This document shows positions 6,085-41,293 of a DNA stretch of 64,000 bases, piece by piece. The position numbers and the translations under genes were made by a program. This DNA comes from Candidatus Latescibacterota bacterium. GTDB lineage: Bacteria; Latescibacterota; UBA2968; GCA-2709665. Under the pieces are notes generated by a model, which searched no databases, was not told where the DNA came from, and was given only the letters and a program-made list of their open reading frames with translations. Position 1 is the first letter of the stretch; every line of letters begins with the position of its first letter. The stretch is from assembly GCA_965116875.1 (NCBI GenBank), contig OZ220733.1:768001-832000 (forward strand). The letters are read 5' to 3'.

Positions 6085-7434
6085 CTACGTACCGAACGCA
6101 TCCACAAACTTGAAAAAGTCCGCGAAATCCACGGTGCCGCTCCCGTCCAGATCGAACTTCGCGTTCGTGCTGCCGTACGCGTCGGCAAAGAGGAAGAAAT
6201 CCACGAAGTCGGTCCGGCCGTCGCCGTTGAAGTCTGTTGAGGCCGGACCCTGCACCAGCGGTGTACCGATACGGACGGCCGACCACGATCCGGGTCCCCT
6301 GTTGGTGACCGCACGCAACTGCAGGTCGTACCGGGCGCCGCCCGCCAACCCGGTCACCTCGTACGTCAGCGTGCCGGAACCGGTTGTCCGGACGTACCGC
6401 AATACAGTCCAGTTGGCTTCGGCCTTGTCCGGGGCGTCGCTGCGAATGTAGCGCACGTCGTAGCCGGTAATAATCACGGTGCCGGTTTCGATCGGAGGTT
6501 CGCGCCACGAGATGGTGAGCGAGCCGGTTCCGGCTGTGACCGAAAGGATGGCCGGCGCGTCCGTGCGGAGCGTGAGGTCATAGGCATACAGCTTCTTGTC
6601 CACGTAGTCGGCCACCCACATCGTCGTGCCGTTCGACCAGATCCCGACCGGGTGGCTGTTCCCGGCGGCATTCAGCGAATTGACGTCCCGAAAGGGGTTC
6701 CGGCCATAGTGCGTCAGATCGTACGCATAGATCTTCGCGTCGGCGTAGTCCGCCACCCACATCGTCGTGCCGTCGGACCAGATTCCCTGCGGGTGGTGGT
6801 TCCCGGCGGACCCAAGCGCACTGATTTCTCTCCCGAGATCTGCAACCTCGAGCTCCATGTCATAGGCATACAGCCTGGCGTCGGTGTAATCGGCCACCCA
6901 CATTGTCGTGTCGTTCGACCAGATACCCTCCGGGTTGTCGTTTCCGTTACGCTCCAGCCCGTTGACGTCATTGTCTGCGCTCCGGGCTCCGGTTGACATA
7001 TCGTAGGCATAGATCTTCTCTCCGAACCACGGGTCGTCTGCCACCCACATCGTCGTGCCGTTGGACCAGATGCCCTCCGGGTCGTCGTTTCCTGCGGCCG
7101 CCAGCGTATCGAAATCCTTGTTGGCTGCGCGCGCGCCGGAAGCCAGGTCATAGGCATACAGCTTCCCGTCAGCCTTGTCGGCCACCCACATTGTCGCGCC
7201 GTCCGACCAGATGCCCTCCAGGTCGTCGTTTCCCGCGGCCGCCAACCCATCGATATCCTTACCCGCGTCCCGGGCGCAGCACTCGCCACCGAAGATTTCC
7301 TGCCGCGAATGCAACTTTACCTCCTCATGGCCGCCAACCGGCACGTTGTTGCCCGTATCCGGATGGATCCACGACGCTGACGTGGCCGCCAGAAAGGAGG
7401 CGATAAACCCGATTCTGAAGATTCTGCTTCTCAT
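6085..7434 (-). CDS. Secreted protein: five-repeat beta-propeller (GIWS.GTTMWVAD repeats) + fibronectin type III + C-terminal dockerin-like EF-hand pair
   Basis: Signal peptide MRSRIFRIGFIASFLAATSAS. Five repeats of about 47-50 aa. FN3 motif LTISW..P....ITGYDVRY...GL..G.RY..Q.RAV. C-terminus TDFNGDGRTDFVDFFLFADAYGSTNAKFDLDGSGTVDFADFFKFVDAFG. Confidence 0.85.
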   Translation of the reverse strand: MRSRIFRIGFIASFLAATSASWIHPDTGNNVPVGGHEEVKLHSRQEIFGGECCARDAGKDIDGLAAAGNDDLEGIWSDGATMWVADKADGKLYAYDLASGARAANKDFDTLAAAGNDDPEGIWSNGTTMWVADDPWFGEKIYAYDMSTGARSADNDVNGLERNGNDNPEGIWSNDTTMWVADYTDARLYAYDMELEVADLGREISALGSAGNHHPQGIWSDGTTMWVADYADAKIYAYDLTHYGRNPFRDVNSLNAAGNSHPVGIWSNGTTMWVADYVDKKLYAYDLTLRTDAPAILSVTAGTGSLTISWREPPIETGTVIITGYDVRYIRSDAPDKAEANWTVLRYVRTTGSGTLTYEVTGLAGGARYDLQLRAVTNRGPGSWSAVRIGTPLVQGPASTDFNGDGRTDFVDFFLFADAYGSTNAKFDLDGSGTVDFADFFKFVDAFGT

Positions 7435-7578
7435 GTAATGGTGCCTCCGGGTCAACGAATGTGCAGAATACGACCACCTGAGCCGGTTCCGGTTCGTGAC
7501 TGGCGGTTGCACGACTTTCGAACGGATACGTTGGGATTCAAACCGGACAGTTCCAATCGGCGACGGCGCCAGAATCGC

Positions 7579-10503
7579 CTACGCGCCAAATGCATCGACG
7601 AATCTGAAGAAATCGGCGAAGTCGACCGTGCCGTTTCCATCCAGGTCGAATCTGGCGTCTGTGCTGCCGTACGCGTCAGCGAAGAGGAAGAAGTCCACGA
7701 AATCAGTCCGTCCGTCGCCGTTGAAATCAGTCGAGGCTTGTCCTCCGGTTACGCCACTGCCGAATATCTCCAGAGGCAGATCGGAGGACTTGACGAGGGT
7801 GTAGCCAAAATGGCCATTGGGCAGTCCCGGTAATGTGCCGATATTGACGGTAACCGCCGCGGTCGTGCCGGAGGTGCGTGCGACGGTCAGTGGCTGGCTC
7901 TCGACGCTACCCCTGGAAATCGCGACAGTCGTTGCGCCGCCGCTGATGCTGCCGTTCGCGACGGTAAGCGGCAGGACAATGTTAAAAGGAGCGCCGGCAG
8001 GGGCCACTGCCTTGAACTGCCCTTCTCCGGTTTTCTCCAGGGAAACGTTGAACGGCAGGGGATTGACTGCGTTGCCGTCCAGAGAAAGCCTGTTCAACCC
8101 GGTCAGTCCATCAAAAATGCTATCGGGCAGCGCTGTCAGCCGGTTGCCGATCATGCGCAGGTCCGAGAGTGCGGCCAGTCCTTCAAAGAGGCCCGACGGC
8201 AGCGTTGTCAACTGGTTCAGGCCGAAGCGGAGCGTTTGCAGGGACGATAGCCCGGAGAAAATGTCCTCAGGCAGGCTCGTGAGTTGGTTGCCATACAATA
8301 AAAGTTCCTCCAAACCCGCGAGCCCATCGAAGTCTCCGGATTTCAAGGACGTGATACCCTTGTCGTTGAGGTAAAGCGCCGTAATTCCATCCAGGTGAGT
8401 CGCCGTAACTTCCGCATAGTTCGAGACGTTTGGATCGTTTAGACGGACAACGCCGAGAATCGCTTCTCGCACCTGCGACGTGCGCTGGCTGACCGGAGTT
8501 ATCGAAGCGGCCCACTCGGACACATCCCAGAATTTGATCTGCCTGCTATTCGGCCTCGCATCATTGCCAATGAGCGTTCTTCCGTTTGGTGAAAACAACA
8601 GGCGCCGCACGCCACCCGGCCCACCTGAGATAGACGCCAGGAGTTCGCTCTTGGAAATGTCCCATAGTTCAATCAGACCGAAGGCCGTCACCGCGAGAAC
8701 GGTACCATCCGGCGAAAACACCGGATATGCGCGATTGTAATCGCTCATATCATTCACGGCCCCGGTCTGTGATCCTGTTGCCAGATCCCAGAGCTTGACT
8801 GCCCATGAAATAGGTGACGCGAGAAGCGTCCCATGCCTGGAAATCGCTACTGCTCCTTTTGCTCCAGTCTCGATGGTCGATATCGGGGTTTCTGTAGACA
8901 CGTTCCAGAGCCTGACGGTGCCGGTATTCGACACGGAAGCAAGCTTCCCATCGCCCATAAAGGCGACTTTGCCTATTCTTTCGGCGTGTCCTTCAAGGGT
9001 CGTGCGGGTTGCCCACGTCGCCACGCTCCACAACTTTACCGTGCGGTCGAATGATCCGGAAGCGAGCATCGAACCATCCGGCGAAAAGTCCAGAGATACG
9101 ACTTGATCCGTATGGCCTCCGAGCGTCGCGACCTCTGCTTTGCTGGTCACGTTCCACACTTTGATAGCGCCCTCCCGGGACCCTGCGGCGAGCAGCGTCC
9201 CGCCGGGAGAAAACGCTACAGCATAGATCGTGTTGGCCGAATGGCGAAAGGTGGCTATCGTCTCCCTTTTCGCAGCGTCCAACAACTCCACTCCGCTGCC
9301 GCCTATTGCAAGAAACACGCCGTCAGGAGACATCGCCAGACTGCCGATGTCATATTGATGAGGCATGTCGATTGTGGCGATATGCTGCGGCGAGTGTCCC
9401 GCCTCGAGGAAAAAGCGTATGGGACTGACAGTGCTGGTCCTGTTCCCATTGGTATCGACTGCGACAACATGTATAGGATGCTGAACCGTGTTGGAAAGCG
9501 TCGTATGCGCTTCCGCCACGGTGCCGACGTTGTCAGACGGGAGCCTGCCGTCAAAGCTGAATTCAACGACGGTATCCGTTTCGCCGGACAATCCGTCACA
9601 CGCTTTCACTTCGGGGGTGCCACCCAGAAAGGGGTTCCTGGGGCGAACGAACAGGATGACCTGGTGAAGACCATCGTCATCGCTGACTCTCAGCTGGACG
9701 GGTGTACTCACTGAACCGAACGGATACTCAGATGAAACGAGTTCAACGGTGGGCGGTGATTCGTTTTCGAGTGGTACATCGGGGTCGAAATACGGATGCG
9801 CCGCCAGAAACTCTGCGGCGCAAGCTGACAACGCGCCGGATGACCGGTCCGCGCGTCCGTACGACATGATGTACTTATCATCACGGAAGTCGTGGTGAAG
9901 GCCGAACGCATGCCCCAGTTCGTGGGCGCCGGCAAACCAGTCCCATTCGCCGTATATCATCGCCCATCCGCTGTCCTTCGTACCTGTTCCGCGTCCATGG
10001 GCGGTTCTGCTACTGACGTCCATGACAACCAGCGCGATGTTCTTCGAGTTGTCGAAGGCGCGTTTTATTTCGCCTTCCGTATATCCCCGGCTGCTATAGT
10101 GGCTGTCCGCATAGTCCCCATCGATGCGATGAACGACCGGATCGCCCTGGTCATCGGTTTCAACCTGGAAAGTCGTGTCTCCGTATCCGAGCGCCTCCAT
10201 CTGCTCGCCAAAGAACGTCTGAAGATCGAGAATCCCCGCTTTCATCGAATCCACGACTTCGGTGCGGTACGGCCGGTCGTTCGGCAGGAAATAGAAGAGA
10301 CGCACTGTGCGGGGTTCCCCCACGTTCAGGTCGGACGCCCGCTTACCGGCGGGACCCGGCTCATCGCTCTGCCAATGTTCGGGATCGAAAGGCAGGCAGA
10401 AATGCGCGCTGTCGGCAGGCACGGAAGATGCCTGGCCGTCTGACGGCGGGTGCAGAAATACAGCCAGAACTGCCAGCATTGCCATATGCGAATTCGTCTT
10501 CAC
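7579..10503 (-). CDS. Secreted multidomain protein: metzincin metalloprotease + WD40 propeller + 24-aa LRRs + C-terminal dockerin-like domain
   Basis: HELGHAFGLHH zinc motif with IMSY Met-turn. WD40 repeats (GHTDQVVSLDFSPDGSMLASGSFDRTVKLW). LRRs (NQLTSLPEDIFSGLSSL). Same C-terminal EF-hand pair. GTG start at 10503 is probable. Confidence 0.85.
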   Translation of the reverse strand: MKTNSHMAMLAVLAVFLHPPSDGQASSVPADSAHFCLPFDPEHWQSDEPGPAGKRASDLNVGEPRTVRLFYFLPNDRPYRTEVVDSMKAGILDLQTFFGEQMEALGYGDTTFQVETDDQGDPVVHRIDGDYADSHYSSRGYTEGEIKRAFDNSKNIALVVMDVSSRTAHGRGTGTKDSGWAMIYGEWDWFAGAHELGHAFGLHHDFRDDKYIMSYGRADRSSGALSACAAEFLAAHPYFDPDVPLENESPPTVELVSSEYPFGSVSTPVQLRVSDDDGLHQVILFVRPRNPFLGGTPEVKACDGLSGETDTVVEFSFDGRLPSDNVGTVAEAHTTLSNTVQHPIHVVAVDTNGNRTSTVSPIRFFLEAGHSPQHIATIDMPHQYDIGSLAMSPDGVFLAIGGSGVELLDAAKRETIATFRHSANTIYAVAFSPGGTLLAAGSREGAIKVWNVTSKAEVATLGGHTDQVVSLDFSPDGSMLASGSFDRTVKLWSVATWATRTTLEGHAERIGKVAFMGDGKLASVSNTGTVRLWNVSTETPISTIETGAKGAVAISRHGTLLASPISWAVKLWDLATGSQTGAVNDMSDYNRAYPVFSPDGTVLAVTAFGLIELWDISKSELLASISGGPGGVRRLLFSPNGRTLIGNDARPNSRQIKFWDVSEWAASITPVSQRTSQVREAILGVVRLNDPNVSNYAEVTATHLDGITALYLNDKGITSLKSGDFDGLAGLEELLLYGNQLTSLPEDIFSGLSSLQTLRFGLNQLTTLPSGLFEGLAALSDLRMIGNRLTALPDSIFDGLTGLNRLSLDGNAVNPLPFNVSLEKTGEGQFKAVAPAGAPFNIVLPLTVANGSISGGATTVAISRGSVESQPLTVARTSGTTAAVTVNIGTLPGLPNGHFGYTLVKSSDLPLEIFGSGVTGGQASTDFNGDGRTDFVDFFLFADAYGSTDARFDLDGNGTVDFADFFRFVDAFGA

Positions 10504-10574
10504 GTCAGGAGCCCCCGTCTGTGACGTATGCCCCAGGGTGAATCCGCGCGCCGAAGGCGCATTTCGCCAGGCGG

Positions 10575-12929
10575 TCATTCATGCCCTTTGAGGACATCGA
10601 CTATGCGCCCTTTCTCATCCACGACGTAGATCGGTCCCTCAGCGACACAATCTCCCCAGTTCATCAGATGCTCCGCGACGGGCTTCGCGCCTGCCGGGTC
10701 GGGAAGCCTGTATTCGTCGGCCTGGCCGACGTCGACTTGGTAGCCGTGGTCGGCCAGCGACTGAATCGAAATCCTGCTCAAAGGAACGGGCTCTGCGAGG
10801 TCCGTCCTGAAGGTTGCTGTCATCAGTTCGTCGCCGAACACCGATCCTCTCCAATGACTGCTATCTCTCTCTGCAGGTACCTTTGGGCCGCTGTAGTTCC
10901 GCCCTCCCGCATCGTCGAAGGCTCGAATCGCCCGTGGGCCGGTGAAATACACGTCACGTGCTCCGTGCACAAGGTCCAGTGATTCCCATACCGTCCCGAT
11001 CCCAAGCACGTGCCCCATCTCATGCAGGACTACGCCCGAAAGAAGGGTCTCAGACATCCACTCCAGGTCGTCCCTGTCGATGGCGATCACACCGATCTTC
11101 GTAACCACGGTACCCCGACTTCGATTTCTTTTGACAATGCGCGTTCCTCCTCTGCCAAGCGTGCCCCTGGCGCCGTCGATGTCCCCGATACCAACGAAGA
11201 TCCGCAGGTCATCCACAGTATCGTCGACGAATATTCGTGCATTCAGAAGATCGTCCCACCTGTCGAGCGGATTATCCGAGAAGTCGCTGTCCGAAATGTC
11301 TCCGGTAATGATGGACATCCAGCGTGCGGCAGCCTCGTGGAATAACGCCTTCTGGGACGCGTTGTATCCGTCGCCTGAAGAGCTTTCGACGAAGACGATC
11401 TCGATACGGAAGGGAGACGCCGCGACGGTAACGGCCACCGCGCTCGAGCAGTTGTTTCCGGTATCGGATTCACCCGTGACCGCATCCACACAGGCGCCGT
11501 AGTAGTATGCGCCGGCGGACGATGGCGCCGTCAAACCGATGGACTCGGCAACGGTCCCCGATGCCGCAAGCCCCTGCACCGCAACCGAACCAACTTCCGT
11601 ATCGCGCCTGGAAATCGTCGCGTTCGGCGAACGGAAATAACGCAGCGTTGTCGAGGGCGCCTGAGCATTTCCGCGGTTCCGCACGGTCACATTGAGCGTG
11701 AAGGACTCCCCGGTCGTCAAAGCGCTGCCGCTCCCGGTGGGCGCGTCGAGTACAAGGTCCGGACTTCCACCGCTGGAAGTCGGGATCACCTTGCCGAAAT
11801 TCCTCGCGAAGATCAGAAAATCTGAGAATCCGATTTGCCCGTCGCCGTCCAGATCGAAACGCGCGTCAAACCCCGCGTCGCCCTGCCGTTCGCCGAATCT
11901 CGACGCAAATCGCACAAAGTCGGAAAACCCGACAGTCCCGTCGCCGTCAAAGTCCGGAGACGCAATCGCGTTGAACGTGATCGCGTTCGCCGTCGTCAGC
12001 ACCTCTCTTGACGTGGTACTCCCGGCAAGTGTAACCGTCTCGATGCCGATGGAGAATTCCCTGCCCGTTACATCCGCAATCGTCTCGAACTCGGCGCGCG
12101 CAAGAAAGCCGGACGGCGCAGGCGTTACCGGCGTACCGGACGCGAAGTTGACGCCAACGGACCCTTCAGGAAGCATCAGCGGAAACGCGCTGTTCTCGGC
12201 TTCGACGAAGGTCAGAAGCGACGCGTCAAAGTCAAACCTGAGGATCATGCCGATCAAAGGCGTTCTCACATCGGCAGCGAAAACCTCCACCGCGATGGTT
12301 GCTCCCGATCCGTTGACAATGCCTGACGTGACGCGATCGTCGATCCGGTTGCCCGCGCCGCCGCCCGGTATGAGGTCAAGCGACAGAGCATCGCTGCCGC
12401 CGGCTCCGGAATGCCTGGCATTGAACGCAATCACATCTGTCGTCGTAAGTACGTCGCTGGACGTGGTACTCCCGGCAAGCGTAACCGTCTCGATGCCGAT
12501 GGAGAATTCCCTGCCGGTTACATCCGCAACCGTCTCGAATTCGGCGCGCGCGAGAAACCCGGATGACGTTAACGACACCGGCGTTCCGGACGCGAAGTTG
12601 GTGCCGATGGATCCTTCGGGAAGCGTCAACGGAAACGCGTTGTTTTCGGCCTTGACAAAGGACAGCACAGAAGCGTCAAAGTCAAACCTGAGGACCAGGC
12701 CGATCAGGGGCGTACTCACCCCTCTGGCGAATACCTCAATCGCGATCGTTTTCCCGTTTCCGGTAACCGTGCCTGAGACGACCCCGTCGTCGATCCGGTT
12801 GCCTGCTCCCCCGTCGGTAATCAGATCAAGTGTGAGTACCGCAGATGCATTGGGACCGGCAATGGCCTGACCGGCAAATGCAAGCGACGCAATCGCCACG
12901 AAAGCCAACAGAACCCGTCCTGGAAACAT
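10575..12929 (-). CDS. Secreted scaffoldin-like protein: two cohesin-like domains + internal dockerin-like domain + CARDB + leishmanolysin (M8)-like metalloprotease
   Basis: Signal peptide. Two repeats of about 145 aa (IAIEVFA..V.TPLIG..LRFDFDAS.L.FV.AEN...SGFLARAEF). Dockerin-like PDFDGDGTVGFSDF...FDLDGDGQIGFSDFLIF. CARDB (VRNRGN...YYYGACVDAVTGESDTGNNCS). M8-like HEMGHVLGIG...SHW...DELMT. Confidence 0.8.
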   Translation of the reverse strand: MFPGRVLLAFVAIASLAFAGQAIAGPNASAVLTLDLITDGGAGNRIDDGVVSGTVTGNGKTIAIEVFARGVSTPLIGLVLRFDFDASVLSFVKAENNAFPLTLPEGSIGTNFASGTPVSLTSSGFLARAEFETVADVTGREFSIGIETVTLAGSTTSSDVLTTTDVIAFNARHSGAGGSDALSLDLIPGGGAGNRIDDRVTSGIVNGSGATIAVEVFAADVRTPLIGMILRFDFDASLLTFVEAENSAFPLMLPEGSVGVNFASGTPVTPAPSGFLARAEFETIADVTGREFSIGIETVTLAGSTTSREVLTTANAITFNAIASPDFDGDGTVGFSDFVRFASRFGERQGDAGFDARFDLDGDGQIGFSDFLIFARNFGKVIPTSSGGSPDLVLDAPTGSGSALTTGESFTLNVTVRNRGNAQAPSTTLRYFRSPNATISRRDTEVGSVAVQGLAASGTVAESIGLTAPSSAGAYYYGACVDAVTGESDTGNNCSSAVAVTVAASPFRIEIVFVESSSGDGYNASQKALFHEAAARWMSIITGDISDSDFSDNPLDRWDDLLNARIFVDDTVDDLRIFVGIGDIDGARGTLGRGGTRIVKRNRSRGTVVTKIGVIAIDRDDLEWMSETLLSGVVLHEMGHVLGIGTVWESLDLVHGARDVYFTGPRAIRAFDDAGGRNYSGPKVPAERDSSHWRGSVFGDELMTATFRTDLAEPVPLSRISIQSLADHGYQVDVGQADEYRLPDPAGAKPVAEHLMNWGDCVAEGPIYVVDEKGRIVDVLKGHE

Positions 12930-14261: not shown

Positions 14262-14312
14262 CGCCGCATTCCTCCTGTCACGATTCATTCCCTCGACCAC
14301 GTCCAACTGCGT

Positions 14313-23600: not shown

Positions 23601-25761
23601 CACCGCGCCGGACGTCGAAGATAGAACTCGCGTAGGAACGACCCGAAAGCGTGAGTGTCACAACGCTCCCGTTCAACGTCGCCTCCGTCAAGGACTGCGC
23701 CACTGTCGCAACAACGGTTTCCTCCAGGGCAACTACATGTACCTGGTCCGTAAGCGCGGGACCGCTGTAGTTCGCGAGTGCCCCCGCGCCCACGGTGAAT
23801 GTCAACGTGCCGTCCGCGTCGATGTCGCCGTTGAAGTCCAGTTCAACCGTCACCTTCGTGTCGCTCACACGCTGCACCCCGAAAGTGCCTACGCTCACGC
23901 CGGTAATTCCCGACACCGACACCCCGTCGCGGACGTCGAAAGTGGAACTCGCGTATCTCGCCCCGGTAAGCGTCAACGTCACCACGCTCCCGTCCAGTGT
24001 TGCCTCCGTCAATGGCGAAACCGTTGTAGCGGTAACCGATTCCATCGCCGCGGCCACTGACAGTTGTGCCGAGAGCGCGGGCCCGTTATAATTCGCGAGT
24101 GCCCCCGCGCCCACGGTGAACGTCAACGTACCGTCGCTGTCGATGTCGCCGTTGAAGTCCAGTTCAACCGTCACTTTCGTGTCGCTCACACGCTGCACCC
24201 CGAAAGTGCCTACGCTCACGCCGGTAATTCCCGACACCGACACCCCGTCGCGGACGTCGAAGGTAGAACTCGCGTATCTCGCCCCGGTAAGCGTCAACGT
24301 CACCACGCTCCCGTCCAGCGTTGCCTCCGTCAATGGCGAAACCGTTGTGGCGGTAACCGATTCCATCGCCGCGGCCACTGAAAGTTGTGCCGAGAGCGCG
24401 GGCCCGTTATAATTCGCGAGTGCCCCCGCGCCCACGGTGAACGTCAGCGTACCGTCGCTGTCGATGTCGCCGTTGAACGTCAGCTCAACCGTTACCACCG
24501 TATCACTCTTGCGCTGCACGCCGAACGTGCCCACACTCACACCCGCAATACCCGACACGGACACCGCATCTCGGACGTCGAAAATGGAACTCGTGTATTT
24601 TCCTCCGGTGAGCGTCAACGTTACCAGACTCCCGTTCAGCGTCGCTTCGGTTAACGGTGATGCCGTTGTTGCCGTCAACGTCTCCATGGCAGCACTTACC
24701 GGCAACTGCGCGGTCAGTGCGGACCCGGCGTAATTCGCGATCGCGTCCGCGCCCACCGAGAACGTCAACGTGCCGTCGCTGTCTATGTCGCCGTTGAACG
24801 TCAGCTCAACCGTTACCACCGTATCACTCTTCCGCTGCACGCCGAACGTGCCAACGCTCACACCGGCAATGCCCGATACGGACACACCGTCACGAACGTC
24901 GAAGATCGAGCTCTCATATGTGCCACCAGTCAGCGTAAGCGTCACCACGCTCCCATTCAGCGACGATTCGGTCAACGGCGACGTCGTCGTCGCCGTCACC
25001 GATTCCATCCCCGCGCTCACGGTCAACTCCGCGGTCAACGCGGCGCCGTTGTAGGACTCGATCGCGTCGGCGCCCACCGTAAACGTCAGCGTACCGTCGC
25101 TGTCGATGTCGCCGTTGAAATCCAGCTCAACCGTCACCCTGGAATCGCTCACGCGTTGCACGCCGAACGTGCCAACGCTCACACCGGCAATGCCCGATAC
25201 TGAAACGCCGTCACGAACGTCGAAGATCGAACTCTCGAAAGCTCGTCCGGAAAGCGTCAACGTCACCACGCTCCCGTCCAGCGTCGCTTCGGTCAACGGC
25301 GACACTGTCGATGCCTCCACCGTTTCTTCCACCGACGGGATAGACAAATCTCTCGTTAGCGCGGCGCCGTTGTAGGACGCGATGGCTCCCGCGCCAACCG
25401 TGAACGTGAGCGTTCCTTCTTCGTCGAAGTCTCCGTTGAAGTCCAGTTCTATCGTCAATTTGGTATCGCTTGCACGCGTTATCCCGAACGTCCCCACGCT
25501 AACGCCTGCAATCCCCGATACCGTTACCGCCCGACGGATGGAGAAGATAGACCGCTCGAAAGTACGCCCGGCAAGCGTCACGGTAACCTCGCTGCCATCC
25601 AGCGTCGCCTCGGTCAACGGACTTGACGTCGACACGGTGATCGACTCCTGAACCGCGGGAACGGGAACCTGGGCGTATCCCGAAACCGGCAGGGCGAATG
25701 CCGCCACAACGACTCCCAACGACATCAAGGCGAATCGCCAATTCTCAACTCTCCGTTTCAT
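20644..25761 (-). CDS. Large secreted adhesin: nine 107-aa repeats + cadherin + YWTD (LDL-receptor class B) propeller + plant-type LRRs + C-terminal dockerin-like domain
   Basis: Signal peptide ending VSGYAQ. Nine SPLTEATL.GS.VTLTL.G...GVSVGTFG.QR.SD...GTLTFTVGA repeats. Cadherin (AENTPAG..VG...ATD.DG..L.YSL...YEVTV.VSDG...DVNE). Six YWT(D/N/E) blades. LTG.IP.ELG LRRs. C-terminus ADFNGDGIVNFADFFDFVDAFG. Confidence 0.85.
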   Translation of the reverse strand: MKRRVENWRFALMSLGVVVAAFALPVSGYAQVPVPAVQESITVSTSSPLTEATLDGSEVTVTLAGRTFERSIFSIRRAVTVSGIAGVSVGTFGITRASDTKLTIELDFNGDFDEEGTLTFTVGAGAIASYNGAALTRDLSIPSVEETVEASTVSPLTEATLDGSVVTLTLSGRAFESSIFDVRDGVSVSGIAGVSVGTFGVQRVSDSRVTVELDFNGDIDSDGTLTFTVGADAIESYNGAALTAELTVSAGMESVTATTTSPLTESSLNGSVVTLTLTGGTYESSIFDVRDGVSVSGIAGVSVGTFGVQRKSDTVVTVELTFNGDIDSDGTLTFSVGADAIANYAGSALTAQLPVSAAMETLTATTASPLTEATLNGSLVTLTLTGGKYTSSIFDVRDAVSVSGIAGVSVGTFGVQRKSDTVVTVELTFNGDIDSDGTLTFTVGAGALANYNGPALSAQLSVAAAMESVTATTVSPLTEATLDGSVVTLTLTGARYASSTFDVRDGVSVSGITGVSVGTFGVQRVSDTKVTVELDFNGDIDSDGTLTFTVGAGALANYNGPALSAQLSVAAAMESVTATTVSPLTEATLDGSVVTLTLTGARYASSTFDVRDGVSVSGITGVSVGTFGVQRVSDTKVTVELDFNGDIDADGTLTFTVGAGALANYSGPALTDQVHVVALEETVVATVAQSLTEATLNGSVVTLTLSGRSYASSIFDVRRGVSVSGITGVSVGTFGIQRVSDTKVTVELDFNGDIDADGTLTFTVGADAIANYSGPALIATLPVSAGMESVTASTPSPLTEATLNGSVVTLTLTGGKYASSVFDVRRGVTVSGITGVSVGTFGVQRASDTKVTVELTFSGDIDADGALTFTVTAGAIANYSGASLTAQLPVTAGMESVTATTVSPLTEATLNGSVVTLTLTGGKYASSVFDVRRGVTVSGITGVSVGTFGVQRASDTKVTVTLTFNGDIDTDGTLTFTVGAGAIANYSGASLTAQLPVTAEVGGETNQVPTFSEGASTTRSFAENTPAGQNVGGPIRATDGDGGTLSYSLEGTDAASFVLVSTSGQLQTKTGVIYDYDVKNRYEVTVRVSDGQGGSATIDVTINLTDVNEPQANPELYWTDASKDKIQRANLDGSNVEDLVTETDGLDGPVGLVLDVDGGKMYWTEWERNKIKRANLDGSNIENVVTSGRAPVWLALDVPGGKLYWTDWGTDRIQRANLDGSNVEDLVTRNLNSPGGLSLDVTNGKMYWTDSSWHKIQRANLDGSNVEDLITSGVDGPSGLALDVVHGKMYWTNLNADKIQRANLDGSNVEDLITRGLDKPYELVLDLAGAKMYWTNGGFAKIQRANLDGSNVEDLVARADGLSNPSGLALAVAPAPTPPAPQGPCATGSAVPNPAANPWLVSDCNVLLEARDPLRGTATLNWSENTAIATWDGVTISGTPQRVTNLRLWNKGLNGTIPAGLSRLTGLNALQFGYNQLTGTIPAELGSMTGLTHLVLPSNLLTGTIPAELRNLTNLRKLALQINGLTGNIPSWVGTLRRLQILNLYENQLTGAIPTELGNLTELWQLLIFGNRFTGTIPAELGNLSLLQEVRLDDNRLTGSIPSTLGGLARLGLLYLAGNSLTGCIPPALREISRHDMDKLNLPDCSQPQGQKTADFNGDGIVNFADFFDFVDAFGTTDAKYDLDDNGIVNFADFFEFVDAFGTSG
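22760..25650 (-). repeat. Intragenic tandem array of nine 321-bp units
   Basis: The period of 321 nt is visible, for example in the antisense ORFs starting at 23795, 24116 and 24437. Units 5/6 and 8/9 are nearly identical in DNA. Confidence 0.9.
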
Positions 25762-25774
25762 AAGTCAGCATCCT

Positions 25775-28700
25775 CTATTCAAAGGTGCCCCTGGTGACGC
25801 GTCCGCTCTCGATGCTGCATCCGCCGGAAGAAACACAGGTATAACGGGTTCCATCCTGAAGCTCGATCAGACCGCCGTTCTGGAAGCTGAGTACGGCGCG
25901 CCCCCCACTGATTGTAAGGCTCGCATTCCGAATGAGCCTGGGCACGAAGAAGCCGGTGGGGAAGTTCGGAAGCACATCACCGACGCCGTAGGTTCCGCCG
26001 CTGCTGCTACCGCCTGAGGCGCCTATGGCCAGTCCCGACGGATCCACAAGCCCGTTGGAACTGGTGAGCAGGTCTTCGACGTTGGAGCCGTCCAGGTCCG
26101 CGCGCTGGACCTTGTCGGCATCCACGTCCGTCCAGTACATCTTGCCGCCGGACACGTCCAGGTCCAGCCCGTTCGGGCTCGTCAGGCCGCTGGTGACCAG
26201 GTCTTCCACGCTGGAACCATCCAGACCGGCGCGCTGGATCTTTTTTGTGCCGCGATCGGTCCAGTACATCTTGCTCCCGGACAGATCCAGGGCCAGGCCG
26301 GTGGGGCTGCTCAGTCCGCTGGTCACGAGGTCTTCCAGGTTGGCGCCGGTCAGGTCCGCACGCTGGATCTTGTCCGACCCGGGATTCGTCCAGTACATCT
26401 TGCCATTGGCCACGTCGAGTGCGATTTCACCAGGAAATGCCAGACCCGCCAGCGTGAGCAGGTCTTCAACGTTGGAACCGTCGAGGTCCGCGCGCTGGAT
26501 CTTGCCGTTCTGCCGGTCCGTCCAGTACATCTTGCCCCCGGACACATCGAGCGCCAGACCGTACGGCACGCTCAGGCCGCTGGTAATAAGGTCCTCGACG
26601 TTGGCGCCGTCCAGGTCGGCCCGCTGGATCTTTGCCGTACCCGCGTCCGTCCAGTACATCTTGCCACCGGCCATATCCAGGGCCAACCCGTCCGGGCCGT
26701 TGAGTCCGGCGCCGCTGACCAGATCCTCGACGTTCGAGCCGTCCAGGTCCGCGCGCTGGATCTTGTCCGTGCCCCAGTCCGTCCAGTACAGTTTCGACGT
26801 TCCCGTGGCGGGTGGCGTCGTCGCCGCAACAGTAATGCTCACCGCCGCGGAGCAGTTGTTTCCGGTATCGGATTCACCCGTTACCGCATCCACGCAGGCC
26901 CCGTAGTAGTAGGTGCCGGAATTCGATGGCGCCGTCAGGTCAATCGCCAAAGCCAGATCAATCGATCCGGGATTCCCTCCCGACGCCGCAAGGCCGTTCA
27001 CCGCGTCCGTTCCAACTTCCGTGTCGGACGTTGAGATGCTCGCGTCGACCGACATATAGTAGCGCAACGTCGTAGCCGCCGACATCTGATCGCCCTGGTT
27101 GCGAACTGACGCGCCCAGCCTGAAGGTGTCGCCGGCAGCCGGGCTGCTGTTGCTGACGAAAGGCGATACGACAACCAGGTCGGCACTGCCTCCACCCCCG
27201 CCGCCGGAACCGCCACCCCCGCCGCCAGACGCCGTCGCCAGGGCCAGACCCGACGGGTCCACCAGCCCGTTGGCTCCGGTTACCAGGTCTTCCACGTTGG
27301 AGCCGTCCAGGTTGGCGCGTTGAACCTTATTCGTGCCGGTGTCGGCCCAGTACATTTTCCCTCCGGACACGTCGAGAGCCAGGCCATTCGGTCGATTCAG
27401 GCCGCTGGTGACAAGGTCTTCGACATTGGCCCCACTGAGGTCCGACCGCTGGATCTTGTCCGAGCGCCGGTCCGTCCAGTACATCTTGCCGCCGGATATA
27501 TCAAGTGCGATCCCGGTCGGACTGTCTACGCCCCTGGTGACGAGGTCTTCGACTCCTGATCCATCCAGGTTGGACCGCTGAATCCTGTTCGCGCCCGGAT
27601 TGGTCCAGTACATCTTGCCGCCAGACACGTCCAGGGCCAGACCGCCGGGAAACGTCAGACCGCTGGTGATCAGGTCTTCCGCGTTGGCGCCGTTGAGGTC
27701 GGCACGTTGTATCTTGTTCGTCTGCCGGTTCGTCCAGTACATCTTGCCGCCAGACACGTCCAGGGCCAGACCGTACGGTATTCCCAGGCCCGTTACCAGG
27801 TCTTCCACGTTCCCGCCATTGAGATCAGCACGCTGGATCTTGTTGGCGCCCGCATCCGTCCAGTACATCTTGCCGCCTGCCATATCCAGCGCCAAACCGT
27901 CCGGCCCGTCCAGTCCGCCGCCGGAGACCAGGTCTTCCACCCCCGAGCCGTCCAGGTTGGCGCGCTGGATCTTGTCGGTTCCCCAGTCCGTCCAGTAGAG
28001 TTTGGACGCTCCAGGGGTGGGCGGTGGTGGCGCCGCAGCAACCGTCAGGGCAACGGCAGGCGAACAGTTGTTCCCCGTATTGGACTCGCCGGAAACCGCG
28101 TCGACACACGCGCCGTAGTAGTAGGTTCCCGAACTGGAAGGCGCCGTCAGGTTGATCGACTCTGCGCTGACGCCGCCGGCGGAGAGTCCGCTCACCGCGT
28201 CAGTGCCTGCTTGCGTGTCGCTGGTGTTCACTGTCGCGTCGGTCGAACGGTAGTAGCGCAAGGTCGTCGCGGCAGACGATCCGTTACCCTGGTTCCGGAC
28301 TGTCGCGCCAAGCGTAAAGGTCGCCCCGTGCGATACGCGACTGCTGCTCAGGGAGGGGGACTGAACGACCAGATCCGGGTTGCCGCTACCACCACCCCCA
28401 CCGCCCGGCGATGGCGGTGGACCTCCAAAGCTCTGCGCGAAGATCAGAAAATCCGTAAAGTCAACCGAACCATCGGAATTCAGGTCCTGTGCGGCATTGT
28501 ACCTCCCGTCGCCCTGCCGCGACCCGAACGCGCCCGCAAAAATCAGAAAGTCCGAAAATCCGACGAAATCATCGCCGTCGAAGTCTGGAGAGGGCGCCGA
28601 GTTAAACGTAACCTCACTGCTTGTCCTGAGTTCGTCGCTCGAGGTGGGACTTTCCGCGAGGGTAACCGACTCGATGCCAATGGCGAACTCCCGGCCGGTT

Positions 28701-29110
28701 ACGTCCGCAACGGTCGTAAACTCCGCACGCGCCAGAAACCCGGAAGCCGCCAGTGTGACGGGGCTTGACGCCGCCAGGTGGGTGCCGATGGAACCCTCCG
28801 GAAGCGACAGTGGGAACGCGCTGTTTTCGACCTCTTCATACGACACCAGCGAAGCGTCGAAGTCGAATTTCAGGATCATTCCGGCCAGGGACGTCCGCAC
28901 GCCGGTCGCGAATACCTCAACGGCGATGGTTGTGCCCCGACCGGAAACTGTTCCCGACGTGACCCCGTCATCCGTCCGGTTACCGGCGCCTCCACCGGGA
29001 ATCAGGTCAAGCGACAGGACGACATTGGCATTGGCGCCGGCGAAAGCCTGTCCGGAAACGACGACGACCGCGAGGGCGGCAATCAACAACAGAATCCGTT
29101 TGGGAAGCAT
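25775..29110 (-). CDS. Secreted scaffoldin-like protein: cohesin-like + internal dockerin-like + (CARDB + YWTD propeller) x2 + small Cys-pair C-terminal domain
   Basis: Signal peptide ending GQAFA. Cohesin-like domain homologous to that of 10575-12929. PDFDGDDFVGFSDFLIF...QDLNSDGSVDFTDFLIF. Two CARDB domains, and two sets of six GKMYWT...KIQRADL.G.NVEDL repeats. Confidence 0.85.
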   Translation of the reverse strand: MLPKRILLLIAALAVVVVSGQAFAGANANVVLSLDLIPGGGAGNRTDDGVTSGTVSGRGTTIAVEVFATGVRTSLAGMILKFDFDASLVSYEEVENSAFPLSLPEGSIGTHLAASSPVTLAASGFLARAEFTTVADVTGREFAIGIESVTLAESPTSSDELRTSSEVTFNSAPSPDFDGDDFVGFSDFLIFAGAFGSRQGDGRYNAAQDLNSDGSVDFTDFLIFAQSFGGPPPSPGGGGGGSGNPDLVVQSPSLSSSRVSHGATFTLGATVRNQGNGSSAATTLRYYRSTDATVNTSDTQAGTDAVSGLSAGGVSAESINLTAPSSSGTYYYGACVDAVSGESNTGNNCSPAVALTVAAAPPPPTPGASKLYWTDWGTDKIQRANLDGSGVEDLVSGGGLDGPDGLALDMAGGKMYWTDAGANKIQRADLNGGNVEDLVTGLGIPYGLALDVSGGKMYWTNRQTNKIQRADLNGANAEDLITSGLTFPGGLALDVSGGKMYWTNPGANRIQRSNLDGSGVEDLVTRGVDSPTGIALDISGGKMYWTDRRSDKIQRSDLSGANVEDLVTSGLNRPNGLALDVSGGKMYWADTGTNKVQRANLDGSNVEDLVTGANGLVDPSGLALATASGGGGGGSGGGGGGSADLVVVSPFVSNSSPAAGDTFRLGASVRNQGDQMSAATTLRYYMSVDASISTSDTEVGTDAVNGLAASGGNPGSIDLALAIDLTAPSNSGTYYYGACVDAVTGESDTGNNCSAAVSITVAATTPPATGTSKLYWTDWGTDKIQRADLDGSNVEDLVSGAGLNGPDGLALDMAGGKMYWTDAGTAKIQRADLDGANVEDLITSGLSVPYGLALDVSGGKMYWTDRQNGKIQRADLDGSNVEDLLTLAGLAFPGEIALDVANGKMYWTNPGSDKIQRADLTGANLEDLVTSGLSSPTGLALDLSGSKMYWTDRGTKKIQRAGLDGSSVEDLVTSGLTSPNGLDLDVSGGKMYWTDVDADKVQRADLDGSNVEDLLTSSNGLVDPSGLAIGASGGSSSGGTYGVGDVLPNFPTGFFVPRLIRNASLTISGGRAVLSFQNGGLIELQDGTRYTCVSSGGCSIESGRVTRGTFE

Positions 29111-29256: not shown

Positions 29257-30066
29257 CTACTTCAACAACAGCATCCTCCTGGTCGCTGAGAAACTGCCCG
29301 CCTGTATCCGATACAGATAGATGCCGCTGGCCACGCGCCGGCCCAGCGCGTCCGTCCCGTCCCACGTCGCGGTAAAAGACCCGGCGTTTCTGCGTTCGTT
29401 CACCATGACGCGCACCTCCTGGCCGATCAGATTGTATATCGCCAGCCGAACCATTCCCGCCTCCGGCAACTGGTAGCCGATCGCGGTGGAGGGGTTGAAT
29501 GGGTTGGGCATATTCTGCTCCAGATTGAACCGATCCGGCAGCGGCTTCAGATCGCCGATTTCGGCGTGATGCAGCATGTCGACGGCACCATCCAGGCCCA
29601 CCAGAACGCTTTCCGATACCTGAAAGTCGGACGACAACGGCGTTGCGCTCGTCCTGAACACAAGCTCGACGAGCTTCCCGCCGCCACTGGCGCCCCGGCC
29701 GTCGATCTTCACCGCGCCAATATCCACCTGCCCCGGCGTCCGGTTCGACGAGAGGAACAGGGTCTCCTGACCGGAACCGGATTTCAGCAGGTTGCCGTCG
29801 AGTTCCGTGGCACTAACGAACTCATACTTCAAGGGATCGTATTGCAGCGAAAACCCGTATCCCTTCAGATCACTGGTCTGCGCCACCGACACGAGCATTT
29901 TCAGAACGCCACTTTCCGCGTCCGGATCGTTCACGCGCTCCAACTTGAGCGTAGCGCCGGAGTTCCGACCTCCGGTAATGGTCAGCCCGCGGGTCATGTC
30001 CCCGGCGAATACCTGGCCGATCAACACAAACGCCGCACAAACGGATGTAACGATTCGAGTCCACAT
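29257..30066 (-). CDS. Small cohesin-domain protein with FlgD-Ig/T9SS-like C-terminal sorting domain (putative anchoring scaffoldin)
   Basis: Strong RBS AAGGAGG before MWTRIV...VFAG signal peptide. Cohesin-like LKGYGFSLQYDP.KYEFV...G.G.LVELVF. C-terminus FNLEQNMPNPFNPSTAIGYQLP....VRLAIYN..GQ.VR.......AG.....WDGTD..G..VASGIYLYRI.AG.F...RRMLLLK. Confidence 0.85.
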   Translation of the reverse strand: MWTRIVTSVCAAFVLIGQVFAGDMTRGLTITGGRNSGATLKLERVNDPDAESGVLKMLVSVAQTSDLKGYGFSLQYDPLKYEFVSATELDGNLLKSGSGQETLFLSSNRTPGQVDIGAVKIDGRGASGGGKLVELVFRTSATPLSSDFQVSESVLVGLDGAVDMLHHAEIGDLKPLPDRFNLEQNMPNPFNPSTAIGYQLPEAGMVRLAIYNLIGQEVRVMVNERRNAGSFTATWDGTDALGRRVASGIYLYRIQAGSFSATRRMLLLK

Positions 30067-30368
30067 AACTACCTCCTTTTTGTCACCCGAACGGTGACGT
30101 GGTGAGTACTGCCGACCACGTGGCCTTGAATACCGGTTTTCCGATCCAAAGAACTCGGAATCCAGGAAACAAGCCTCTCGTCCAAAATCACGAACGTCGT
30201 TTATTGAAATCGAGCTCAATCCGGCATTCGTCAGAACAGGCACAATCTTACTCACTGACTCGCCAACGCCGGCCTGAATCCGGTATTGAGACTCCGACTT
30301 CATTTGCTCCCACCCTTGCCAGACGGGCGAGGTGTTCTGCCGAACGCCTCCTTCCGTTCCTCAATGGG

Positions 30369-32273
30369 TCAATCACCAATGATGCCGCCGGCTTCCGGCC
30401 ACCGTCCCCCGTACTTCTCCCCCACAGCGTGGTGTAGCCCCGGTTTCTTCTTGCTCACCGCTGGCTTCGACGCACCAAATGACACATCGACGCCTCTGCG
30501 CCGGAGATCCGGAATGTGCACGTTGATCGAGGTCGCATTCAGTGGGTTATTCCTCACATCCAGGAGATCACCGCTGCCCATTCCGGTATTTGCAACGAGT
30601 GGCGCGAGATCCGAAACCTGGTTGCTTTCGAGATCCAGCCACTCCAGACGAGTCAGACCCGACAACGCAGACACATTTGATATGCTGTTGCCGGCAAGCC
30701 ACAACCACTCGATGTTTCGCAAAGTCGATAGTGCAGACACATTCGATATACTGTTGTCGTCAAGATCCAGAAACTCCAGACGGGTCAGACCCGACAGGGC
30801 CGATACGTTCGATATGCTGTTGCCGGCAAGCCACAATATACTCAGTTTGGTCAATTTAGATAGTAAAGACACATCCGAGATGCTATTGTTATCAAGATCC
30901 AACACTTCCAGACGAATCAGGCCCGATAGAGCCGATACATTCGAGATGCTGTTGTCCGAAAGACCCAGTCCTGTCAGGTTGATCAGATACGAAAGCGCAG
31001 ATACACTGGAGATGCCGTTGTCGGAGAGATCCAGGATTTCCAGACGGGTCAAGTCCGACAGCGCCGAAACATCGGATATCCTATTGCCCGCAATTCCCAA
31101 CACGCTCAGGTTGGTTAAGTTTAATAAGACAGACACAAGCGCAGACGTACTGGGAAAGCTGTTGTAGCCAAGGCCCAGGGTATCCAGACGGGTCAGACCC
31201 GAGAGGGGCATGACGTTCGAAATGCTGTTTTCGGAGAGATCCAGGAATTCCAGGCGGGTCAAACCCGACAAGGGCACAACGTTCGAAATGCGGTTGTCTG
31301 AAAGATCCAGCCGCTTCAGGTTCACAGCAGCTTCCAGCCCGGTCAGATCGCCGATCGACTTCGAGTATGCCTCAAGGCGAGTCAGGGTAGCCATCTCCGC
31401 CGGAGTGACCGGCGCACCCCGTGGCTTCCCTAGACTGTCGGTAATAATGGTACGCAGGGTTACGTCCGGAACGGAAACTTCATTTGGGCCATCACCGCCC
31501 GGCGTTCCATTGACCGAAAGGGTATTCTCACTGACGTACTTGCCCCTTACTCCGTTGATCGTGATTTCCGCTGCCAATCTGTATTCACCCGGGCTGGAGG
31601 GTGAATAGGAACACAGACCGGCGCGCTCCGTACCCGAAACGTCGACCCATGTCTGTCCATCCTTGCGCTGCCACTTGGACGTATGAGTCGTGTAAACGAC
31701 ACCGTTGACATTAGCGTTGTTCCAATGGATACATCTTCCAACCGATATGAAGCCAAACTGGACCCGACCGTCGGATACTCGAAGACCTGCCAGAGGCTTA
31801 TAATCCGCGGCGGGCGTCGTTGGACCACCCTCACCAGAGGTCGGAACCTGACTGCCGAATGCGCCCGCAAAGATCAGAAAATCCGAGAAGGCAACGGACC
31901 CATCGCCGTCCAGATCGAACCGCGGATCATACCGCGCATCGCCCCGGCTGGACCCGAAACTGCCCGCGAATGCAAGGAAGTCGGGAAACCCTACCGTCCC
32001 GTCGCCGTCGAAGTCTGGCGACGGTGCGGTGTTATGCGAAATCTGTCCTTCCAACAAAAGCTTCGACGCGACACTGGTTGTGTCCTTCGGAGGAACCACG
32101 ATCGTCGAGGCTTCGCCACTGGTCACGCTACCCCATGCGTCGCCGGCATCGAGCCCTAGAATCCTCTCGGCGTTAGCAATGGGGCCGGCGAAACCAGGAG
32201 CTGCAACAGCATATACCGCTGTGGCAGCTATCATCAAGGGCATTATAAGAGTCATTGGCGACTCACTCCGCAT
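30369..32273 (-). CDS. Secreted protein: N-proximal dockerin-like domain + unnamed Ig-like domain + internalin-like 22-aa LRRs
   Basis: PDFDGDGTVGFPDFLAF...FDLDGDGSVAFSDFLIF; internalin-like cap VPDVTLR..I...LGK; repeated L.L..NSISNVSALSGLTRLE. Confidence 0.85.
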   Translation of the reverse strand: MRSESPMTLIMPLMIAATAVYAVAAPGFAGPIANAERILGLDAGDAWGSVTSGEASTIVVPPKDTTSVASKLLLEGQISHNTAPSPDFDGDGTVGFPDFLAFAGSFGSSRGDARYDPRFDLDGDGSVAFSDFLIFAGAFGSQVPTSGEGGPTTPAADYKPLAGLRVSDGRVQFGFISVGRCIHWNNANVNGVVYTTHTSKWQRKDGQTWVDVSGTERAGLCSYSPSSPGEYRLAAEITINGVRGKYVSENTLSVNGTPGGDGPNEVSVPDVTLRTIITDSLGKPRGAPVTPAEMATLTRLEAYSKSIGDLTGLEAAVNLKRLDLSDNRISNVVPLSGLTRLEFLDLSENSISNVMPLSGLTRLDTLGLGYNSFPSTSALVSVLLNLTNLSVLGIAGNRISDVSALSDLTRLEILDLSDNGISSVSALSYLINLTGLGLSDNSISNVSALSGLIRLEVLDLDNNSISDVSLLSKLTKLSILWLAGNSISNVSALSGLTRLEFLDLDDNSISNVSALSTLRNIEWLWLAGNSISNVSALSGLTRLEWLDLESNQVSDLAPLVANTGMGSGDLLDVRNNPLNATSINVHIPDLRRRGVDVSFGASKPAVSKKKPGLHHAVGEKYGGRWPEAGGIIGD

Positions 32274-41288: not shown

Positions 41289-41293
41289 ATTTT

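Follow-up and report, generated by a model that had tools for sequence, protein, structure and literature searches.

Two dockerin classes and two cohesin types suggest a two-tier, non-cellulosomal display system in a Candidatus Latescibacterota bacterium

A stretch of 64,000 nucleotides from a Candidatus Latescibacterota bacterium (GenBank assembly GCA_965116875.1, contig OZ220733.1, positions 768,001 to 832,000 of the forward strand; hereafter the window) contains a gene cluster for nine proteins, A475 to I635, that carry dockerin modules of two classes, A and B, and cohesin domains of two types, adaptor and anchor. According to the list of open reading frames (ORFs) and their translations, every relevant gene of the cluster lies on the minus strand (Table 1). 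The cluster may encode a two-tier, non-cellulosomal cohesin-dockerin display system in a diderm bacterium bearing a type IX secretion system (T9SS), a reading for and against which we see about equal chances, its plug-and-socket pairings and surface assembly included. We infer the pairing of class B dockerins with the anchor cohesin, and of class A dockerins with the adaptor cohesins, mainly from gene context in 26 related loci.

In the proposed assembly, protein H would be exported by the T9SS and fixed on the outer surface by a PorU-type sortase, where it would offer one cohesin. Proteins with a class B dockerin (C787, G1111 and I635 in the window) would presumably plug into this cohesin, and the adaptor-type cohesins that class B proteins carry, two in C787 and one in G1111, would be further sockets. 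Class A proteins (A475, B999, D375, E891 and F1705) would in turn plug into these adaptor sockets. The outcome would be stacks of two or three proteins, showing leucine-rich repeat (LRR), WD40, YWTD-propeller, cadherin-like and FN3 domains as well as metallopeptidases at the cell surface.

Dockerin modules of two classes

All six frames of the window were scanned for the calcium-loop pattern D.[DN].[DNS]G.{5}DF and for a relaxed version of it, with 50 mononucleotide shuffles as control. The scan yielded 15 strict and 17 relaxed matches, all on the minus strand within 6115-32015; the pattern was found neither between 32 and 64 kb of the window nor in any of the 50 shuffles. The 17 relaxed matches corresponded to 16 segments of eight modules and to one unrelated loop in E891 (14505-14543). 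In all eight modules two segments of about 22 residues follow each other in tandem, each with a 12-residue calcium loop and then a helix. The spacing from loop to loop was 27 residues in all five class A modules and 33 residues in all three class B modules.

The placement of the modules agreed with the original prediction, which had been made from the letters of the window and had described class A as a C-terminal module with a short linker on cohesin-less cargo at five sites. Both the pattern scan and hidden Markov models (HMMs) of our own recovered these sites, all five modules ended 0-2 residues ahead of the stop codon, and no cohesin match was obtained in the five host proteins. The site described as a variant, at 20650-20802, starts at 20653 and represents a conserved subclass, A2. 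Class B had been described as having a longer linker and as following a cohesin-like domain or its remnant. Within the window this was likewise found, with cohesins in C787 and G1111 and a remnant in I635; the modules lie near the N-terminus, at residues 328-382 of C787 (behind two cohesins), 175-229 of G1111 and 87-141 of I635. Ahead of the I635 dockerin, a signal peptide is retained together with the first strand and some 15 final residues of an adaptor cohesin. BLASTP aligned I635 with G1111 at 60% identity over 70 residues (E 6e-27), with a second segment at E 6e-7, and since the retained segments match G1111, the reading as a cohesin remnant is reasonable. A ninth, decayed class A half-module (DFNCGG..VGFFLVADAFG) could be observed in an LRR gene fragment that resembles the C-terminal end of F1705; it has mutations in its calcium loop, has lost the second segment and scored 28.3 bits (E 6.6e-8) with our class A model, dockA.

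Judged by homology and motif, both classes are dockerins, class A being a short-linker variant that is under-scored by current models. Profile comparison (hhalign) showed the two classes to be homologous, with a probability of 98.8%, an E-value of 5e-17 and 44% identity, the main difference being an indel of six residues in the linker. The best sequence match among solved structures was for both classes the dockerin 2y3n_B (E 2.8e-5 for class A, 1.2e-10 for class B), followed by calmodulins. Isolated class B modules scored 23.8 (C787), 27.3 (G1111) and 17.8 bits (I635) with Pfam Dockerin_1, which has a cutoff of 22.9, and isolated class A modules scored 16.8, 18.1, 15.4, 19.9 and 16.6 bits, all under this cutoff. 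The NCBIfam GC-type dockerin model NF041540 (dockerin_GC, cutoff 29) gave 23.2 (A475), 21.9, 26.7 (D375), 21.6 and 23.8 bits for class A and 18.6 bits for C787, so that none passed. With dockA, by comparison, A475, B999 and E891 scored 97.9, 96.9 and 99.4 bits. Plain EF-hand proteins were rejected as an explanation, a dockerin being the top PDB sequence match and two tandem segments being present in every module.

Residue profiles were compiled from 58 unique class A and 190 unique class B modules. Positions 1 and 12 of the calcium loop were D in 100% and position 6 was G in 81-100%. The original prediction had pointed to helix residues as carriers of specificity, and the classes did differ consistently in loop and helix, at positions 9, 11, 14 and 18. 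Position 9 was D in class A (67 and 93% in segments 1 and 2) and G in class B (88 and 59%), position 11 was A or V in class A and S in class B, position 14 was F in class A (90 and 93%) and L in class B (76 and 89%), and position 18 was D in class A (97 and 93%) and G, S, Q or R in class B. The linker comprised five residues (TDxRF) in class A and 11 residues (xQGDxxYxARF) in class B. Clostridial type I dockerins contact their partner through positions 10, 11, 17, 18 and 22; if these contact positions hold for the modules described here, positions 11 and 18 would presumably be on the recognition face. Because cargo resembling F1705 carries the conserved subclass A2 (IVNF..FFDF), which is distinct from the A1 of other cargo and recurs in at least nine related loci, there may be more than two dockerin specificities.

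Cohesin domains and the anchor protein

The cohesin-like domains, adaptor and anchor, are cohesins by fold, as judged from predicted structures. Pfam Cohesin (PF00963) gave no match to the isolated adaptor cohesins even at E <= 10, and the H cohesin reached 22.0 bits, below the cutoff of 24.1. The adaptor didomain of G1111 (residues 24-229) was modelled with AlphaFold2 from 32 aligned sequences, with a predicted local distance difference test (pLDDT) of 94.5 and a predicted template modelling score (pTM) of 0.79. In a Foldseek search of the PDB, the top matches listed for this model were mainly cohesins (2vo8, 6kgc_A, 2vn5_A, 4uyq_A and 5aoz; E 2e-6 to 1e-4), with a target-normalised TM-score of 0.65 against 2vo8. 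The model of H had a pLDDT of 68.6 overall and of 70-88 in the cohesin part, and its top matches were cohesins as well (2b59_A, 6kgc_A, 2bm3 and 2xdh; E about 1e-6). Type II cohesins made up five of the ten best fold matches of H and none of the ten best of the adaptor, which is a lead only, as the E-values overlap.

More distant relatives of both cohesin types passed the Pfam Cohesin cutoff (P0229 with 28.3 bits, P0244 with 38.1 bits), and precomputed PF00963 annotations were present on the relatives P0050, P0054, P0074 and P0078 and on P0263, P0295, P0296 and P0311. The adaptor-cohesin profile detected 196 representatives at E <= 0.001 among 1.84 billion proteins; of 38 more distant adaptor-cohesin relatives that were scanned, two passed the Pfam Cohesin cutoff and four bore T9SS sorting domains. 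A search of the ESM Atlas gave unnamed clusters only, one of which, at 0.89 and with Cohesin on 18% of its members, is a lead only. The three adaptor cohesins of the window are mutually 67-76% identical. Comparison of the adaptor with the anchor cohesin profile by hhalign detected no similarity (probability 0.7%), which shows only that the two have diverged strongly.

The junction between cohesin and class B dockerin (G1111, 28424-29041) is very short and nearly invariant, with F146, N147 and S151 followed by PDFDGD. From the model, the pair may be a rigid unit, in which case it would resemble the dyad that X-module and dockerin form in type II dockerins.

The gene at 29257 had been proposed to encode the anchor, and its product does combine a cohesin with a T9SS type A sorting domain above cutoff (TIGR04183, 29.3 bits against a cutoff of 23, residues 266-345 of the ORF as listed). 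The listed ORF starts at 30303 (29257-30303) and encodes 348 residues; relatives start at MWTRIV, which gives a protein of 269 residues. FlgD_ig matched with 36.6 bits and a hydrophobic leader is visible at the N-terminus. The H family consists of proteins of 269 residues that are 65-93% identical among the matches listed; their records, from Gemmatimonadota or Candidatus Latescibacteria metagenome-assembled genomes (MAGs), bear the name 'T9SS type A sorting domain-containing protein'.

A C25 peptidase of 1967 residues is encoded 5 kb from H. It scored 232 bits with Peptidase_C25 and 310 bits with T9SS_sortase (NF033707), below the cutoff of 420, and on these matches is best called PorU-like. 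In six of the related loci (L001, L004, L008, L009, L011 and L019) a large ORF of about 1900 residues that ends in a T9SS C-terminal sorting domain (CTD) lies 3.3-3.9 kb upstream of the anchor; by position and CTD, these ORFs are putative counterparts of the PorU-like gene.

Gene context in related loci

A search with the anchor retrieved full-length or near-full-length relatives in 26 loci (L001-L026) with 27 anchor genes, from about a dozen MAGs that are labelled Candidatus Latescibacterota or Gemmatimonadota and contain several copies each. Downstream of the anchor, the next labelled ORF encoded an adaptor in 19 of the 27 cases, a protein with class B only in five and a truncated adaptor in one, and the upstream neighbour carried class B in 16. 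Class A was never the direct neighbour of an anchor gene (0/27). It was second downstream in 11 of the 27, and in nine of these 11 its frame opened 14 nt past the adaptor stop; in the window, where the order is I-H-G-F, the stop of G1111 and the start of F1705 are 13 nt apart. The window and the related loci thus share the conserved order [class B] - [anchor cohesin-CTD] - [adaptor cohesin-class B] - [class A].

Six loci (L018, L020-L023 and L026) contained, within 10 kb, the anchor and only dockerins of the 33-residue spacing, and neither an adaptor cohesin (E >= 0.2) nor class A. These anchor/class-B-only cassettes would be complete in themselves only if the anchor cohesin accepts class B. 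Across the 26 loci, 34 of the 59 class-B-bearing ORFs lacked a cohesin; in these 34 the module was C-terminal in 14 and near the N-terminus in 19. Class B is therefore not an adaptor mark beyond the window. The original prediction, according to which the two dockerin classes follow the role of the protein, holds within the window; in the related loci it fails for these cohesin-less class B proteins.

The same neighbourhoods bear on a different wiring, which we consider unlikely. In it the adaptors would be self-complementary: class B would bind the adaptor-type cohesin, either of another molecule, giving chains or networks, or of its own molecule as a clasp, and class A would plug into H. Adaptor cohesin and class B are always fused across their very short junction, the pTM of the didomain model may reflect a fixed mutual arrangement, and alternating proteins of the form dockB-cohAd-dockB(-cohAd-dockB) occur. 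A precedent exists in Archaeoglobus fulgidus, where the cohesin and the dockerin of a single protein recognise each other, and a cohesin of that organism, 2xdh, is among the fold matches. This wiring is, however, difficult to reconcile with the six cassettes of anchor and class B cargo only, with the lack of class A beside any anchor gene and with the many class B ORFs that have no cohesin at all. It also runs against the rule in cellulosomes, where a dockerin on a scaffoldin binds a cohesin of another type.

Several anchor paralogues were observed per genome. The most divergent of them, in L020, L022 and L023 (70, 64 and 59% identity to H), have class B subtypes as neighbours, VNLADF and VDLADF, whose loop and helix residues are different. 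Such subtypes stood beside three of the nine listed anchors at <= 72% identity and beside almost none of the nearer anchors (a stray single-segment module in L015), a count that was made by eye on a small, non-independent sample and is a lead only. By sequence, there could be several orthogonal anchor-dockerin pairs.

Domain architectures of relatives

The adaptor and anchor queries gave a set of 378 proteins, in which architectures were counted. An adaptor cohesin followed by class B was found in 158, two adaptor cohesins followed by class B in 33, an anchor cohesin followed by a CTD in 112, and one or two adaptor cohesins followed by a T9SS CTD in seven; no protein of this set had more than two cohesins. 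The spacing of 33 residues occurred in 169 of 174 dockerin modules of the adaptor and anchor protein sets. More than 190 proteins whose C-terminal domains are unrelated begin with the unit of signal peptide, cohesin and class B as a conserved leader.

With the class A tag, 122 relatives were found, of which 120 were listed, all of 206-657 residues. None of these 120 contained a cohesin of either type. A CTD was lacking in 77, and 62 of the 77 ended exactly at the module. Distant class-A-like tags were present on proteins of the PF00150 cellulase family (P0490, P0491 and P0495).

Evidence against the proposed wiring

Several observations weigh against the proposed wiring and surface assembly. 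Many of the 26 loci are orthologous, so that the counts are not independent, and the three partners share one putative operon, so that adjacency cannot fully separate the possible pairings. Adaptor-type cohesins are fused straight to CTDs in P0031, P0176, P0202, P0227, P0233, P0234 and P0242, and P0181 bears a full short-linker dockerin immediately behind an adaptor-type cohesin. A T9SS CTD, about 25 residues past the module, was also present in 43 of the 120 class A proteins; A475 itself is 51% identical over 421 residues to its full-length homologue P0446, which continues into a linker and a sorting domain. In the window, none of the dockerin proteins has a CTD in addition to its signal peptide, and the proposed assembly does not account for their crossing of the outer membrane.

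Covariation belongs to the same group of observations. It was determined by Mantel statistics for 25 of the 27 anchor genes, two having been dropped that had no adjacent class B module of at least 50 residues. The anchor cohesin and the neighbouring class B dockerin gave an r of 0.57 (p 0.0006) and a partial r of 0.25 (p 0.05). In the control, the anchor's own CTD and the same class B dockerins gave an r of 0.59 and a partial r of 0.30 (p 0.01). The covariation is no stronger than the control and reflects shared cassette history, not demonstrated co-evolution; co-evolution, for which the original prediction had suggested an analysis across genomes, was thus not obtained. Of the wiring that it had proposed, class A to adaptor cohesins and class B to the anchor at 29257, the gene order fits, whereas class B is not adaptor-specific and the covariation does not discriminate. 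A complex of three chains (G1111 cohesin, H cohesin and the A2 module of F1705, each with its own alignment) was predicted at a score of 0.02 against a mark of 0.32; as the tool was calibrated on pairs and run without controls, this result weighs neither for nor against binding.

With covariation at the level of the history control, it has to be considered that there is no hierarchy, an improbable reading in our view, in which both dockerin classes bind both cohesin sets, or overlapping ones, and the classes reflect descent and position alone, one having spread with an N-terminal leader module and the other with C-terminal ends. The identity between the classes, their common helix pattern DF(F/L)xF(A/V)xxFG, the near-symmetry of the two segments in each module and the conservation of the cohesin-class B leader ahead of unrelated domains would all agree with this, as would the exceptions to the positional rule, P0181 and the 14 C-terminal class B modules without cohesin. 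Binding without distinction, however, is not what would be expected from helix positions as strongly class-specific as 9, 14 and 18, from two cohesin types too distant to be linked by their profiles, or from the conserved gene order.

Dockerin proteins, having lost or never possessed a sorting domain, might reach the surface by hitch-hiking, crossing the outer membrane as folded complexes on cohesin-CTD carriers, for which we see a small chance. They would plug into H or its paralogues in the periplasm and end up anchored via the lipid-linked end of the carrier, and the cohesin-dockerin pair would act both as a surface tether and as a secretion signal that can be detached. The relatives with both class A and a CTD would then represent an ancestral, self-sufficient state. 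The T9SS transports folded proteins, as stated in passages of PMC9251779, which makes co-export on such a carrier conceivable; piggyback transport through the T9SS is not described in those passages.

One third of the class A relatives keep the module beside a sorting domain, and anchoring therefore cannot be the only role of class A. That class A is instead a calcium-binding stalk or spacer ahead of the sorting domain, left C-terminal after loss of that domain and not a ligand of cohesins, is very unlikely: its order ahead of the CTD, the presence of one cargo family in forms with and without CTD, the scores below both dockerin cutoffs and the calmodulins that follow one dockerin among the PDB matches would suit such a role, but class A shows clear homology to class B, two modules of which pass the Pfam cutoff in the window, the proteins ending exactly at the module represent a conserved architecture, class A genes directly follow adaptor-cohesin genes in 11 loci, and the exposed helix residues are highly conserved.

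Comparison with known systems

By analogy, the arrangement would work like a small two-tier cellulosome with adaptor scaffoldins, minus the defining cargo and scaffoldin features. It resembles the multi-tier cellulosomes of Firmicutes (Acetivibrio cellulolyticus ScaA/ScaB type) in having two dockerin classes, two very different cohesin types, proteins with cohesin and dockerin as adaptors and a separate cell-bound cohesin protein. Cellulosome anchors are held by S-layer homology (SLH) repeats or by sortase, whereas here the host is a diderm of the Fibrobacteres-Chlorobi-Bacteroidetes (FCB) group and the anchor would be held by a T9SS sorting domain. Unlike in cellulosomes, the adaptors carry one or two cohesins and are themselves cargo, and class B is found on many cohesin-less proteins too. 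An adaptor cohesin also stands where, in type II dockerins, an X-module would precede the dockerin. Pfam and NCBIfam scans detected no glycoside hydrolase and no carbohydrate-binding module (CBM) among the nine proteins A475 to I635; a cellulosome was rejected on these grounds and because of the limit of two cohesins per protein. Adaptor scaffoldins as such are described in PMC4959524.

No literature on such a system in Latescibacterota or Gemmatimonadota was found by full-text search, the nearest being, from the passages available, a report on Cloacimonadota (PMC8542988). As outlined in those passages, Candidatus Stygibacter has a cellulosome-like system of one tier, described in silico. It likewise belongs to the FCB group and has dockerin-terminated proteins with signal peptides, next to a cohesin protein with a conserved C-terminal domain for surface attachment (PMC8542988, same passages). 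It differs in its single scaffoldin of 3,755 residues, with tandem cohesins, CBM2 and CBM3, and in its cargo of glycoside hydrolases and peptidases (PMC8542988, same passages). The system of the window has a single-cohesin anchor, a second tier of adaptors, two dockerin classes, and repeat or adhesin-like cargo with metallopeptidases. A full-text search for dockerins together with sponge and eukaryotic-like proteins gave nothing relevant.

Among family models, class A is similar to NF041540 ('GC-type dockerin domain-anchored protein'), with which it aligns over positions 3/4 to 63/64 of 67 on the five cargo proteins; it is shorter, however, with about 47-49 residues across some 60 model positions and 21.6-26.7 bits against the cutoff of 29. 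A likeness to the 'choice-of-anchor' domains of NF041539 is seen in E891, which has a choice-of-anchor R domain above cutoff. As in the non-cellulosomal modules of bacteria and archaea, of which Peer et al. 2009 reportedly gave a survey, the cohesins and dockerins here are on proteins unrelated to cellulose breakdown.

If the proposed wiring is true, cohesin-dockerin assembly would extend past cellulose-degrading Firmicutes to a T9SS-bearing diderm lineage, and would there serve to display adhesin-like repeat proteins and proteases on the surface in varying combinations. It would also involve a cohesin family invisible to Pfam, offer several possibly orthogonal plug-socket pairs usable for protein engineering, and pose the question by what route the surface of a T9SS organism is reached by proteins that lack a sorting domain.

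Gene organization of the window

The features of the window are listed in Table 1. A hydrophobic leader typical of a signal peptide, judged by eye, opens all nine proteins A475 to I635. The ORFs of C787 and B999 as listed overlap by 4 nt; since the signal peptide of B999 begins at the second in-frame Met cluster, the real gap may be about 90 nt. Family labels such as internalin and XopL were rejected, as these matches were far below their cutoffs and due to LRRs alone.

Table 1. Genes, domains and other features of the window, with positions in the window and scores of family matches
Feature	Position	Strand	Description
A475	6085-7512	-	WVAD/YAYD repeats and FN3 (fn3, 39 bits)
A475 class A dockerin	6088-6237	-	Exact C-terminus; position by own HMM
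B999	7579-10578	-	Reprolysin-like M12 metallopeptidase (Reprolysin_5, 28.6 bits, cutoff 27), WD40 propeller, LRRs
B999 class A dockerin	7582-7731	-	C-terminal; position by own HMM
C787	10575-12938	-	Adaptor: signal peptide, two adaptor cohesins, class B dockerin, CARDB, HExxH region with weak leishmanolysin-like similarity (Peptidase_M8, 18.8 bits, below cutoff)
C787 class B dockerin	11793-11957	-	By own HMM, 11787-11963
C787 adaptor cohesin 2	11958-12407	-
C787 adaptor cohesin 1	12414-12860	-
D375	13179-14306	-	Repeat cargo
D375 class A dockerin	13182-13331	-	C-terminal; position by own HMM
E891	14313-16988	-	Choice-of-anchor R domain (choice_anch_R, 53 bits, cutoff 30), GLUG repeats (Glug, 75.7 bits)
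E891 class A dockerin	14316-14465	-	C-terminal; position by own HMM
Decayed gene fragment	16963-17433	-	LRRs, then half class A module
Half class A module	17080-17151	-	Decayed
Low-GC island	17798-20490		GC 0.50 against about 0.60
Island protein 1	17798-18223		141 residues
Island protein 2	18364-18879		171 residues
Island protein 3	18872-19321		149 residues
Island protein 4	19318-19920		200 residues
Island protein 5	19981-20490
F1705	20644-25761	-	About ten tandem repeats of 95 residues, cadherin-like domain, YWTD propeller, LRRs
F1705 class A dockerin	20653-20802	-	C-terminal, subclass A2; position by own HMM
G1111	25775-29110	-	Adaptor: signal peptide, adaptor cohesin, class B dockerin, two CARDB, two YWTD propellers
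G1111 class B dockerin	28424-28588	-	By own HMM, 28421-28594
G1111 adaptor cohesin	28592-29041	-
H	29257-30066	-	Anchor of 269 residues, with signal peptide
H T9SS type A sorting domain	29260-29520	-
H anchor cohesin	29533-30000	-
I635	30369-32276	-	Internalin-like LRR cargo
I635 class B dockerin	31854-32018	-	N-proximal; by own HMM, 31848-32024
I635 cohesin remnant	32019-32189	-	Before the dockerin
AraC-type response regulator 1	33211-33918		AraC-type DNA-binding domain
AraC-type response regulator 2	34095-34856		AraC-type DNA-binding domain
PorU-like C25 peptidase	35520-41423	-	1967 residues, own T9SS CTD; putative T9SS sortase
Surface-polysaccharide cluster	41294-55430

Two of the cargo proteins, A475 (6400-7350) and D375 (13340-14150), contain repeats of about 45 residues, GNDxPxGIWSDGTTMWVAD..KxYAYD, that matched Pfam NCH3 with 27-35 bits. 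The matched stretches cover only 18-21 residues and none of them passes singly; judging from the sequence, the repeat is probably a new propeller-like repeat rather than an NCH3 domain. In F1705, the tandem repeats occupy residues 40-1000 (22762-25650) without a confident Pfam family, and two adjacent copies are identical over long stretches.

The dockerin gene cluster is divided in two by the low-GC island. The first four of its five small proteins are paralogous and, by eye, share the motifs MQTRAFD and LQDFGF; each of the five has a lipoprotein-like leader ending in G-C, also judged by eye, and none has a Pfam match. Between I635 and the PorU-like gene lie the two response regulators; no sensor kinase was identified among the ORFs scanned.

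The surface-polysaccharide cluster begins directly past the PorU-like gene. It comprises genes for a PMT_2-type transferase, an epimerase, GT4 and GT2 transferases, a sulfotransferase, a Wzx-type flippase, a DegT aminotransferase, a Wzy_C ligase/polymerase and Wzi. In Porphyromonas, T9SS cargo is linked to surface lipopolysaccharide, and the adjacency of the PorU-like gene and the polysaccharide cluster may be meaningful.

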